A DNA stretch of 64,000 bases from Eledone cirrhosa (taxonomy: Eukaryota): the NCBI GenBank assembly GCA_964016885.1, contig OZ024742.1:138446001-138510000 (forward strand), read 5' to 3'. Under the pieces are notes generated by a model, which saw nothing but the letters and a program-made list of their open reading frames with translations, was not told the origin of the DNA and searched no databases. A program made the translations under genes and the position numbers. The stretch's first letter is position 1. The number at the start of each line of letters is the position of its first letter. Shown one piece after another: positions 16,590 to 28,158 of the stretch.

Positions 16590-18128
16590 AAACTAAAAAC
16601 TCTACCATACATCTCCACACACAACCCCCTTAACAATGCGGCATTCGACACCATCCTCCAGAACATACCTTTACTGAAAAGAGACCTAATAATGAACCAA
16701 ATCCTCCAAACACACAGTATCATAAAGAGCAAAAGACAACCGGAATCAATAAAAAACATCCTTACACAGGCCAAAGTCCAGCCGACCCCCACAATGATCC
16801 CTACAGTAAAAAGAAATGCGGAAGACCCAACTGTTGTCTGTGTATCAATCTAATAGAGGGGTCGGAGTTCCACTTCAAACAAGGACAACACTTTACATTA
16901 AAGTGCAATTTCGCATGTGCATCAGAAAATCTCCTCTATGTGTTGACCTGCTCAGGTTGTCCAGAACACTACATAGGACAGACCAAAAACAGCCTCCGAT
17001 AACATATGACCGTCATAGATCCTAAATCAAAATAATGGAATACAGAAAGATAGCACTAAGTGAACACATCGTGACCTGCGCATCTAATGAACAACCCAAT
17101 TTTAGAATTGTTCCCATCTACAAATTCAAAGACAACGCTTCCTACATCCAACGCATTAGCAAGGAATCGCAGTCGCCAAATAGGAAACCCTTCTAAATGC
17201 TTCCACTTCGGACTAAACCAGAGCTGGCACACTTTAAAATCAACACCCTAGACATATCAAACCTTTAGCAATGTATCCTTCTCCAAGATTCCAGCAACCT
17301 CTGACAGCAATATAATGTAGACCAAGCAACGACGTAGTAACAACCACATCAGCAAGTCCTGGAGGACCTCCATGAAGATAATCGGATAAATGGAAACATT
17401 CAGGTGCCAAACTAAATGCTCTATTTTCCCCTGAATCTGGAAGCTTTTGCTGAAGATAGAATAGGTATTTCAGTGGCTCTGAACCCCTCTTTGTAGTAAA
17501 CTTTTCCCCATCCCTTAAATCTAAAATTCCTGCTAGGGATGGAATTAATATTTCAATAACTCTAAATTTTCTTTGTGGCAAAAAAACAAGGTCAGTGTTG
17601 ATTTCGTCTAAGAAAAAATACCAAGATAGATATTTTTAGAAGCACCTCCGCCCCGATCAACTCTAAGGTCACCCAGCCTTTCAAACCAATCCCAACCAAA
17701 CCTTGTATCCCCTATTCAAAGGGTCCCACATAGCAGTCTACAGCCACAACGACCATCTCCTACCACCTCCCCTCCTTCTCCTCTCCCCTCCTGCTTCTTC
17801 CCTCCCCAGTCACAACAAAGCCATTAGCAGAGAAGGATGGACTGACAAAATGACTTTCTTCTCTGAAGGACAACGTATGTGAAAATTAACTTTTCTTCCC
17901 CTCTCTATATATTTTTTTCCCCGTTTTTTTCTCTTTTTTCTTATTATCATTATTTTTCACTATTTGTACAAATATGCAACCTAACAATATTCTGTATCCG
18001 CAATTGAAAATGCATTTAATGCTGAAACCGGTATTTTAAATAAATTAATGTTTTGAAATTTCACCAAAAATATCTCTTCAACATTTTCTACAGGAAAAGT
18101 TCTTTTTCCTTTCTACTATTTGTTTGGT
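16590..18128 (+). mobile_element. 5'-truncated Penelope-like element (GIY-YIG end + pLTR) flanked by (TA)n
   Basis: CGRPNCCLC then CASENLLYVLTCSGCPEHYIGQTKN across frameshifts; hammerhead variant at 18001. Confidence 0.85.
18001..18036 (+). ncRNA. Minimal hammerhead-like motif, U3-A8 variant
   Basis: CAA-TTGAAAA-tGCATttaATGCt-GAAAC-CG-GTA-TTT then AATAAA; palindromic ACCGGT; stem I weak. Confidence 0.5.
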
Positions 18129-18549
18129 ATATATATATATATATATATATATATATATATATATATATATATATATATATATATATATATATATATATAC
18201 ATTTGTGCCGAGTCGAATTAAGCTTGTACTTATTGATAAGTTATTTGAAATTCTAGTGTGAATTTCAGCCCCTCAAACGTAGTACCCTTGTAATAGTGGA
18301 AGCCACAAATTTATAAATAGATAAATAGTCTAAACAATTATTTTATATAGGTATATAACAAGGTTTCGATATTTGCATATGTATGTCTACATATGCTTTT
18401 CCCAATCAGACGACACTATCTTCTTTCCACGTTTCTTAAATCTCTCCGTGTTTGTATGATTGTATGTTTGTATGTTTGTATGTATGTAAGTATTCCGAAC
18501 ATTGGTTTCTTTCTAGAACCTGTAATAATGCCTATATATATATATAAAA

Positions 18550-19165
18550 GTGAGTCCTTCATCAGTGACCCTCCAACCGTCCTAGGCATTTCATCGCTTT
18601 AAGGGCCATATACCTCAGGTTGGTGCGAACAACGGCTAAAAAAAGTCGTTGGGACACGTAAATAAAGAGAACGTTAGGGTGAACAAACAAAATGGTTTAA
18701 GCAACAGAAAGTGAGAAGAAAGAGACAAGTCCCAGATTTCTATGAATATAAACTCGATAAAATCGTGAACTAGAGAATAAAGACCATCAGACCTGGTTGA
18801 AATGTGAGCAAGGAAGGAATTTCGCACAGGTCTAACGGGAGGAAGAAGAAGGGGTCTGGTCTGCGAATTCGGTAAACATAAGTTCTGTGAAGACGCAAAC
18901 GAGAGAGAAGAGAGAGAGAAAAAAAATTTCATACCGGCTTGGCCAAGAGTGCGCGAGAAAAGAAATCGGACAGGTCAAGCGGGAAGAAAGAGGAGAGGAG
19001 GAGAGGTAGTGACAGGGTATGAGTGAGTGAAAGTTGAGGAAGAGGCTAACAGAGAGAGAGACTGCTAGAAAGGGTAAAGATACAAAGAACGAAACAGACG
19101 GGTGGCAGCAGAGGAAAAAATATATGTGTAAATATGATAATAATGGAGCTGCGGCGTTACCATCA
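18550..19165 (-). repeat. Purine-rich interspersed repeat related to 29560-30120 and 34050-34590 (probable PLE pLTR family)
   Basis: Shared left-end motif TCxTCAGT...ATTTCxxCGCxTTAA and GA-rich body, beside (TA)n. Confidence 0.5.
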
Positions 19166-19306
19166 TATATATATATATATATATATATATATATATATAT
19201 ATATATATATATATATATATATAAGTTAAAACAATGAAATAAAAAATCAAGTCATTAGAGATATACTTCACTGCTTTACGATCGTTTCTAGATGATGATA
19301 TATAAT

Positions 19307-19492
19307 TGTTTCTACTTTAGGCACAAGGCCAGCAATTACCCAGTGCATTACTGGTACTTTATTTTATCGACCCCGTAAGGATGAAAGGCAAAGTCAACCT
19401 CGGCGGAATTTGAACTCAGATCGTAAAGGGGCGTAACTATGCTAGAAAGCATGGCGTCCGACCCTCTACCGATACTGCCAATCCACCGCCCT
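19307..19492 (-). mobile_element. Full-length SINE family A with 16-bp TSD
   Basis: A box TGGCAGTATCGG, B box GAGTTCAAATTC; TSD GATGATGATATATAAT at 19291-19306 and 19493-19508. Confidence 0.95.
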
Positions 19493-25429: not shown

Positions 25430-27170
25430 AAATCAGATGAGATCCAATGACCTCGTCCATCTTTAGAGATTCTAATACTGAACTAAAAGGTTGTTTCGCT
25501 AAAGGAACTTTTCACTCTTACACAAATATACAAACTAACTTTTAGAAACTCTAACCTTCATAATCAAACACTGTCTCACTAATCATATGTAAAGATACAT
25601 TTTTTCAATAGATGATGTGTGAGTCACGACTAAGCTTGTGCTAAACGATCAATCTAATCAAATATAGTGATGCATATTTCCTGCAAAAAGCATAAAACTT
25701 ACAATACATATTGTATAAATCAAACTTTACTTTTATAAGATCATACGAAAGTAAAGGACTGAAAAAAAGCTATATTGGTACGACAGTTAGTAACTAAAGC
25801 ACATATTTGTTCAATCATGAAATATTCTTTTGATATTTGGACAAACCAAATGCTAGAAAAGTACCCAGTCATATATAGAGACAGAAACAAGTAAAGGGAC
25901 ACATGCTAACCATAGTAAAACCTGAAAGGTGACGATTTAATATGTGAGGATTCCTTTACGCAAAACAAAATCATTTTAAAACATTTGAAGAACAACCAAA
26001 TTAGATTAATAGATACAAGCACCCCCGTGCAATCGGGACAAACAGTGAACATACACACACACACCGAGATTAGAGCCAAAGTATTAACCCAAGCATATGG
26101 CAAGCCTCAGCACAGCTGCCACCCAATATTGTTCTTTTTAACCTTACCAACTTTTACTTATGAAACATACAACCAGAATCAGCTCCAACACAACTGCAAC
26201 GTCCTTTCTTACAAATATACATTAACATTCCAATAACCACTATTTATGCAGATGCATGAATTCGGTTTTAGCCTAGATATCCAAAGAAACACCAACACAC
26301 AAAACTGAAATACTTAAATACATACATAACTGAAAATTGTATTGGCTTCTTTTCACTAATCTTTTGTAGACGATAAATAAATAAATCCACAAATGAAGCA
26401 GTTTCATACATACAATGATTTTGTCTTATTTAGGCAGTACCTCTTACACAGATACATGCTAGTTCGTACGTTATCCCATATATCTAACAAGGGACCTTCA
26501 TATAACGCTAAAATTAACTTTCATAAATATTCAATTAGACGTCTCTTTACAATCCCTCGAGATAAGATTTCACCACCAAATCTTGTACTTCGTTCTATAG
26601 AATGGAAATAAGTGTGACTGTTAAATTCACTCTAATACAGACATTTACTTTTATTTGGTGAGAAGCATTTGAATATATATTAACTTGTGCATTAAGAAGC
26701 CGCCGACTTCAACTCTAAATGTGTATTTATCCAGGAACTATGCCATATGCGAATAATTTGTGTGCGGATACATCTCTTGTTTATGTATGTCACCAAAGTA
26801 TCCAATAGTGGAAGAATTGGACCCGAGTTTCAGTTCTAGTTAAACCCACCATCACGATCTGTGCATACCTCTCACAACCCATAGCCAAATACGTAACTAA
26901 TATATTGAAAGCTGTTAAAGGGAACTGGAACTACCAATTTCCTATTATCAATGTTCAAGGTAGTTTCTTCATCGATTATATAGTAACGTCTGTGTAAAAC
27001 AGCTGAATAGTACCCACAAAGAAACCATACATGATTTAACCAAAGCTGCAGGTAACGTATCTTTAAACATACACACATATGTATGTATAAACATGGCAAC
27101 GTCTTATTTACGCACTTCACCATAGATAGAAAAAAAGCTAATATACAGTTCAATATCTAATTGAATTAGC
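25430..27170 (+). pseudogene. Possible very old Penelope-type RT relic
   Basis: Only faint motif echoes (GTFH..KI.K-like, FNHEIF, KGT) upstream of hammerhead-bearing repeats. Confidence 0.25.
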
Positions 27171-27471
27171 TAACACCGTAAGCAATAGATTACAGTACAT
27201 TATGCTATAGATTTCAGTAGTGTCATTAAAAAACAATAGACTAAGCGAAATATTCAACAAGACAATCGCGATGACAAAAGACGCAGGTGTGTCTTTGTAG
27301 CTAACAAATTTGCTGCATGGGCACGCATCTTGTCCAGTGTCTTTTACTCAGATTGCACAATACCCTGTGAATAAATCTCTGTAAATGCTAACTATGCGGA
27401 AACTCATCGTATATATGCATATATATATATATATATCGTCCTACGGACGTGTTTTGAAACTCTGAATGAGG

Positions 27472-27567
27472 TATCCTCTTGATAAGTCGCAAACCTCACG
27501 AAAATACAGCATCTCTGTGATGTAATGTTTTTGCATAATAAGCCACGAAACTACGTAGTCGAGGATA
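27472..27567 (+). ncRNA. Type-I hammerhead, U3-A8 variant
   Basis: TATCCTC-TTGATAA-gtcgc..gccac-GAAAC-TACGTA-GTC-GAGGATA; 7-bp stem I, palindromic ACTACGTAGT. Confidence 0.8.
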
Positions 27568-28061
27568 GTGAGGAAATTTAGGTATATTATATCTTATTAA
27601 TTATATCTAATGTTTCTTCTTTCTTTATAATGTATTATATAGCTCTGATATTGAATCAATCTAATCCATTCTGATTATTTTGTCCCGATTATTCATAGAG
27701 CAACAACGGTTAAGGTTGGCACCACACAAATTCAGGGATATATGTGGGTATATTCATGTATATGTATGTATCCGCATGTGTCTGTGTATTTCTTTATATT
27801 GTTTATAACTCCCTACGGTAGAGTAACCACTGAAGTGTAGTGACTGCTGTGTAACTTACATTACTCAAACTTCTCACCCTCCTAGCCATCTCTTCTACGG
27901 CCTTGACATAAATACCTCCTCCGCCTTTTGTGGTATTTTTCTCTTGGTTGTAAGAGGCTTAGTGCTATTTCTTGACCGCTGTATCACGTGATGGACTCCC
28001 CCTCCGCTTTTCAGGATTCTATCTCGCGTCCTACGGACGTCTTTTGAAACTCTAAATGAGG

Positions 28062-28158
28062 TATCCTCCTGATAAGTCGGCAAACCTCACAAAAATATTG
28101 CATCTCTGTGATGTAGTGTTTTTGCATAATAAGCCATGAAACTACGTAGTCGAGGATA
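28062..28158 (+). ncRNA. Type-I hammerhead, C3/A8 mismatch copy
   Basis: TATCCTC-CTGATAA-gtcggc..gccat-GAAAC-TACGTA-GTC-GAGGATA; 15-bp internal hairpin. Confidence 0.75.

Follow-up and report, generated by a model that had tools for sequence, protein, structure and literature searches.

A stretch of 64,000 nucleotides of the Eledone cirrhosa genome (assembly GCA_964016885.1, contig OZ024742.1, positions 138,446,001 to 138,510,000 of the forward strand), analysed as a whole and here called the window, contains three predicted type I hammerhead ribozymes in which the tertiary pair between core positions 3 and 8 is U-A instead of C-G. They lie in the repeats of two families of Penelope-like elements (PLEs) and of one non-coding tandem derivative, referred to as families 1, 2 and 3, and U3-A8 is the founder state of all three, not a product of decay. 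With a probability of about 0.8, these folds belong to ribozymes that are likely to be self-cleaving, as predicted, and whose Watson-Crick pair has likely been kept by selection in transposition-competent elements. The U3-A8 core itself has already been published, and what is described here is its repeated origin beside C-G sisters.

Three hammerheads with a U3-A8 core

The first-pass annotation of the window had pointed to TTGAAAA at 18004, TTGAAAA at 22832 and TTGATAA at 27479 as hammerhead cores with a compensatory change, and all three heptamers are present at these positions. TTGANAA is frequent (the two strands of the window hold 68 occurrences, including 7 on the + strand within 18001-28158), so that the heptamer alone does not exclude chance and the case depends on the structural context. 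This context is borne out, since each heptamer lies in a type I fold with core, GAAA and palindromic helix III, and the residues N3 U4 G5 A6 N7 N8 A9 ... G12 A13 A14 A15.1 and U16.1 H17 follow in the correct order in all three families (H17 is A, A and C in families 1, 2 and 3). The contexts were also said to differ, as they do: the three neighbourhoods have no real DNA similarity, the longest match being 17 nt. A first look gave at least 1092, 1599 and 1271 repeat candidates for sites 1, 2 and 3, respectively.

In family 1, helix I is GCAA/TTGT in 17 of the 18 copies scored (G>T at 18036 leaves a mismatch in the window copy), helix II has 3 bp above a U.U base, helix III is a 6-nt palindrome and the predicted cut follows GUA, the helices being supported by complementarity alone. 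Site 2 had been set aside as no hammerhead because GAAA was not close by, a view abandoned once its other half had been located 107 nt downstream. The 107-nt insert of family 2 folds as a single long helix II on a C.A base, with a palindromic helix III, a predicted GUA cut and a helix I of 7 bp, ATTGCTT/AAGCAGT, whose 3' strand is decayed in the window copy (19 of 23 copies start AAGCAG). Family 3 has a helix I of 6 bp, a helix II with a bulge and a large loop, a 10-nt palindrome as helix III and a predicted GUC cut. Decay in the three named copies affects helix I at sites 1 and 2 and helix II at site 3 (a 1-nt deletion), and leaves positions 3 and 8 intact. In every case helix III is perfectly palindromic, with a self-duplex of -8.3 to -12.9 kcal/mol and no hairpin in the monomer. 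A short upstream hairpin (27469-27478), present in most family 3 subfamilies, competes for the 5' strand of helix I and could act as a switch.

The state of the pair was tabulated over the 3.0-Gb genome, using for each family a pattern with positions 3 and 8 free and exact flanks required. Among the first 100 matches, U-A was found in 98 for family 1 (139 matches in all; one A.A, one U.G), in 98 for family 2 (944 matches; one U.G, one U.U) and in 99 for family 3 (6350 matches; one U.G), so that a C3-G8 consensus, the outcome named beforehand as refuting, did not occur. A Watson-Crick 3-8 pair is thus the rule in these families; in only 14 family 3 copies genome-wide is position 3 anything but T (8 C, 4 G, 2 A), always with A8 and never as C3-G8, and the mismatched window copy at 28069 is one of them. 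By hand count over the same first 100 matches, position 7 is approximately 78 C, 12 A and 10 T in family 1 and 70 A, 28 C and 2 T in family 2. Since the copies of a family inherit one event, the evidence for selection lies between families and not across copies.

Sister families and recurrence of the switch

Family 2 has a C3-G8 sister with 6448 matches (C-G in 97 of the first 100), from which it is separated by two additional compensatory pairs in helix I. A second sister pair, with 79.5% identity over 259 nt, is U-A on one side (all of the first 100 among 696 matches) and C-G on the other (17 of 18), and helix III is altered in a compensatory manner in a subfamily of family 3. A retrozyme-like sister pair with a unit of ~320 bp, U-A versus C-G, was observed at loci L223-L244, with several apparent compensatory changes within a distal extension of helix I when compared by eye.

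Of 20 Hydra-type endonuclease fragments placed in a tree, 10 have a known core state; the tree requires two changes of that state and rejects a single U-A clade (approximately unbiased test, p 4e-47). Counting family 1, which belongs to another PLE clade, and leaving family 3 unplaced, there would be about four U3-A8 origins, provided that no terminal repeats were exchanged. A further U-A family has 6405 exact matches, of which the first 100 are identical over 33 nt, which indicates that young, successful elements carry U3-A8. A Neptune-like endonuclease fragment lies upstream of it in 1 of 15 loci, and it may have a common origin with family 1. Its copies (L245-L256, L139, L187, L190) often stand in short inverted pairs.

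A wider view was obtained with a descriptor leaving positions 3 and 8 free, run on 800 kb of arbitrarily chosen genome sequence, which gave 96 matches (69 C-G, 18 U-A and 9 other), whereas the control, this sequence reversed, gave 2. Of the three sites in the window only site 3 was picked up, because the copies at sites 1 and 2 have a decayed helix I; their families were recovered elsewhere. In an extended set of 1.33 Mb, 231 distinct matches formed 51 clusters, and after exclusion of 30 single-copy clusters from the family count there were 21 multi-copy families, 16 C-G, 5 U-A and none mismatched (Fisher p 5e-5); one two-copy cluster split between C-G and U.G was scored as C-G, which the larger family count confirmed. 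Two leads to intermediate families (U3.G8 or C3.A8) came to nothing, the copies concerned having decayed from families that are themselves C-G (in 97 of the first 100 and in 22 of 24). The sister families, the absence of any mismatched family and the tree together support, at the level of sequence comparison, selected covariation of positions 3 and 8, which had been the original proposal, over decay.

The first-pass annotation had further suggested that such lineages are missed by CUGANGA searches, and this stands in part. Descriptors of this kind would indeed miss the U-A ribozymes, that is, about one fifth of the intact hammerheads in arbitrary sequence (18/96) and more than 14,000 exact pattern matches across the five U-A families. 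The swap is, however, not the sole reason: Rfam gave no hammerhead among the matches listed for the whole window (the best 150 of 165, made up of microsatellite-driven microRNA-type and other chance matches), none at each of the three sites at E up to 10, and likewise none at two C3-G8 motifs of PLE type in the window, and it follows from the failure of these controls that the Rfam models do not cover such an architecture. Both are canonical type I hammerhead motifs with a palindromic helix III, at 838 (+) and 62581 (+), the second belonging to a multi-copy family.

Host elements and other features of the window

Over 1578 nt the window copy of family 1 shares 87% identity with the copy at L123, whose frame matches Pfam GIY-YIG above the cutoff and has a CX4CXXC linker. 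A DKG motif marks the reverse transcriptase (RT) in the frames of its relatives (L122, L123), where the RVT_1 match, at E 3.5e-5, stays below the cutoff. Family 1 therefore shows the features of the Neptune clade (DKG motif, RT, CX2-5CxxC linker, C-terminal GIY-YIG) and is labelled Neptune-like from its sequence, with the reservation that the linker is common to Nematis too.

The family 2 copy is split, outside the ribozyme, by an insertion which we take from its end motifs to be Helitron-like and which holds a 93-bp unit nine times at 21691-22522. The remnant shows 93-97% matches to the full-length copy at L121, with the endonuclease remnant at 20236-19802. In L121 two terminal repeats flank an open reading frame (ORF) for RT and endonuclease with RWR and DKT motifs, and the features of the Hydra clade are found in the L121 and L125 frames, namely RWK-type and DKT motifs, RT followed by a C-terminal GIY-YIG, and two hammerhead-bearing repeats; the Pfam GIY-YIG match is weak (E 0.002, below cutoff). 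An assignment to Naiad was dropped, since RWK/DKT motifs define Hydra according to the available part of PMC8557442. In that same part, the Hydra-clade PLEs of Craig et al. (2021) resemble family 2 in their RWR/DKT motifs, C-terminal GIY-YIG-type endonuclease, repeat hammerhead and (TA)n ends. The Hydra rows of File S2 of that paper are unlike family 2 in being C3-G8 in 26 of 26 cases with short helix II loops, and the descriptor behind the table may have required a canonical core; U.U and C.A helix II bases are present in it. Two side observations concern the family 2 repeat: a truncated copy at ~19240-19300 (-) retains the GAAA half of the ribozyme only, fused to an abundant short repeat, and at L126:2753-5523 the repeat lies upstream of a different Hydra-like ORF, an arrangement that suggests nested insertion or repeat sharing.

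Family 3 is non-coding, comparison with PLE proteins giving nothing better than E 0.3. Its hammerheads are spaced ~590-595 bp apart in arrays of up to 5, with a frequent inverted partner, and of 26 distinct tails 15 end in (TA)n 75-81 nt past the cut site and 11 continue into the next unit. Folded as a circle, the monomer gives z values of -5.1 and -5.5 on the ribozyme strand against 0.1 and -0.6 on the opposite strand (25 shuffles). On sequence grounds the family fits the description of non-LTR retrozymes (LTR, long terminal repeat). As described in the available text of Cervera and de la Pena (2020, PMC7229834) and of a preprint by Li et al. (2026, 10.64898/2026.07.22.740005), the animal forms are likewise non-coding head-to-tail repeats with one type I hammerhead per unit, a GC content below 45% and a strongly folding circular form (predicted here for family 3). 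Family 3 is distinguished from them by its monomer (~590 nt vs ~220-350 nt) and its U3-A8 core. The single similarity of family 3 to a candidate partner was rejected as a microsatellite. At L251, a copy of the U-A family with 6405 matches is lodged between family 3 copies. Furthermore, two sequencing runs labelled as other organisms (X4 and X5) each hold one contig of 620-621 nt, at a depth of ~8, which corresponds to one family 3 monomer (L128:5790-6396) and has no listed difference at the core, that of X4 closing on itself; either carry-over or a related species may account for them. Contigs from four runs of unspecified kind were compared in all and, being able to show neither cleavage nor expression, were not used as evidence.

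Elsewhere in the window, an open frame of 942 codons at 56663-53838 (-) is presumably similar to the ORF of a long interspersed nuclear element, and fragments at 48594-50114 (+) presumably resemble a hAT transposase. Tandem arrays of a 175-200-bp repeat resembling a short interspersed nuclear element occupy 38989-40894 and 51860-52380, and a long near-perfect inverted repeat at 16248-16362 is probably an inverted repeat-element junction.

Table 1. Positions of the three ribozymes and of the elements containing them (window coordinates; cut sites are predicted)
Feature	Position	Strand	Basis	Parts
Family 1, 5'-truncated Neptune-like PLE	16579..18130	+		Remnant of a broken GIY-YIG endonuclease; 3' region containing the terminal repeat; (TA)n end
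Family 1 type I hammerhead, cut after A18033	18000..18037	+	Sequence, family copies	Helix I 18000-18003/18034-18037; core U3-A8 18004-18010; helix II 18011-18023; GAAA 18024-18027
Family 2, Hydra-like PLE remnant (19601 is the edge of the stretch compared, not an element boundary)	19601..21229	.		Inverted endonuclease-region fragment (-, to 20587), then + strand 3' region
Putative Helitron-like insertion in the family 2 copy	21230..22791	+	Junctions; uninterrupted copies	TC...CTAG between A and T
Family 2 terminal repeat (pLTR)	22792..23148	+	Family copies; L121 comparison	
Family 2 type I hammerhead, cut after A22957	22825..22964	+	Sequence, family copies, folding	Helix I 22825-22831/22958-22964; core U3-A8 22832-22838; helix II 22839-22945 (107-nt); GAAA 22946-22949
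Family 3, non-coding retrozyme-like element	27437..28223	+		~1.3 tandem units of a 590-bp monomer; start adjoins (TA)n
Family 3 type I hammerhead, copy 1, cut after C27560	27473..27566	+	Sequence, family copies	Helix I 27473-27478/27561-27566; core U3-A8 27479-27485; helix II 27486-27546; GAAA 27547-27550
Family 3 hammerhead, copy 2, decayed, cut site C28151	28063..28157	+		C3.A8 mismatch 28069/28074

Weighing the explanations

Several published systems bear on the reading of U3-A8 as a selected pair. Covariation to U3-A8 is described, in the available part of Cervera and de la Pena (2014, PMC4209133), for the Cercyon PLEs of Schistosoma mansoni (~1,300 matches), whose hammerheads, like the present ones, lie in terminal repeats of PLEs, have a short palindrome as helix III and a dimer-type design, and show the U3-A8 pair. 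The Eledone elements differ from these in forming several homogeneous families, founded as U3-A8 and accompanied by C3-G8 sisters, and family 2 also in its 107-nt helix II, far above the 7-8 bp described. Natural core variants with U3-A8 are active in vitro according to the accessible text of Perreault et al. (2011, PMC3088659), which also describes a U10.1.U11.1 base and where the same compensatory pair is rare, whereas it occurs in 18 of 96 intact matches here. In the excerpts of PMC11167929, single mutants of positions 3 or 8 abolish cleavage by a PLE hammerhead. Among the sources searched, which left most of the subscription literature outside, no published U3-A8 core in cephalopod or Hydra-type elements and no sister-family switch was found. 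Small PLE-associated hammerhead variants were reportedly treated by Lunse et al. in 2017 and may already include variants like these.

A number of points weigh against the preferred reading. C3-G8 sisters of families 1 and 3, and an autonomous partner of family 3, were not found among the loci examined. The tree was built on 141 columns, with two rows less than half filled; three of the five U-A families entered the sample through chosen loci; the families are related, so that the Fisher test overstates their independence; and the exact flanks required in the genome-wide patterns favour intact copies. Moreover, the window copies of families 1 and 3 do not fold as hammerheads under energy minimisation, the helix I pair probability in family 3 being 0.04 with a competing local hairpin. 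From the literature available in part, cleavage by minimal PLE hammerheads is poor in vitro (PMC4209133), hammerhead mutants have no effect on PLE insertion in vitro and, for a lizard PLE, none of the RNA ends observed fell at the cut site (PMC11167929).

The low activity in vitro and the insertion without cleavage, together with the weak helix II bases of families 1 and 2 (U.U and C.A), would also be expected if the fold were selected for another role, for instance as a feature that the PLE protein recognises, in the packaging of RNA or in a cleavage kept deliberately slow. This is doubtful, since no family examined has lost any of the catalytic positions or an NUH site, the contact between positions 3 and 8 belongs to the active site, and an axolotl hammerhead with a U.U base does cleave (PMC7229834, in the part available). 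It is far less probable still that all U3-A8 cores go back to a single event and passed between elements as terminal repeats were exchanged, which would leave the families without independence. PLEs insert into each other, the L126 arrangement places a family 2 repeat beside a different Hydra-like ORF, and family 1 and the family of 6405 matches have the GAAA-helix III segment in common, perhaps from one origin; however, the U-A ribozymes resemble their own C-G sisters and not one another, the three window neighbourhoods are dissimilar, and the endonuclease tree contradicts a single U-A clade.

Finally, AT-biased drift that fixed U3 and A8 separately after the ribozyme had lost importance, with a coincidental pairing, is largely refuted and highly improbable: both changes are GC-to-AT transitions in a region of ~35% GC rich in (TA)n, and G3-C8 or A3-U8 cores are absent among the 231 matches (which fits a transition bias, a pyrimidine-purine preference, or both), but mismatched founders would be expected, of which there were 0 among 21 families, the U-A ribozymes show no excess of AT over the C-G ones (GC 0.30-0.51 vs 0.24-0.48, p 0.35), and position 7 and the helices have changed around an otherwise constant core. 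The decay that the first-pass annotation had kept as its alternative is thus not upheld in view of the 98-99 U-A cores among the first 100 matches per family and the lack of a mismatched multi-copy family, even if mutation bias may still supply the change.

In the proposed working, the palindromic helix III segments of a transcript spanning two repeats would pair to form a double hammerhead, and cuts after GUA, GUA or GUC (families 1, 2 and 3) would release unit-length RNA, which in family 3 would be religated into a circle, unless an uncut multimer is the template. Genomic copies keep the whole ribozyme across the cut site plus the tail, which points to one of these two templates. The RT-endonuclease of a PLE would then copy the RNA into (TA)n tracts. 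The pair itself would have passed from C3-G8 to U3-A8 several times by two transitions, perhaps via a U.G wobble, with amplification only of lineages in which the Watson-Crick pair was restored; as both transitions are toward AT, mutation bias may supply the change and selection filter it, the two not being exclusive.

The function of PLE hammerheads has been called unclear, and they may be parasites of the element, in the available text of PMC8557442. A tentative extension, which is on the unlikely side, is that PLEs need the active-site tertiary fold for spread in vivo even though insertion in vitro does not, and that U3-A8 is a recurrently favoured tuning and not a neutral variant; such a tuning could be toward slower or dimer-only cleavage. 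If this is true, the repeated C3-G8 to U3-A8 switches between sisters would be a natural compensatory-mutation experiment. Founders that switch a tertiary core pair without an amplified mismatch argue for selection in vivo on the catalytic fold, and the sister pairs are ready test constructs for the question of why PLEs keep ribozymes.

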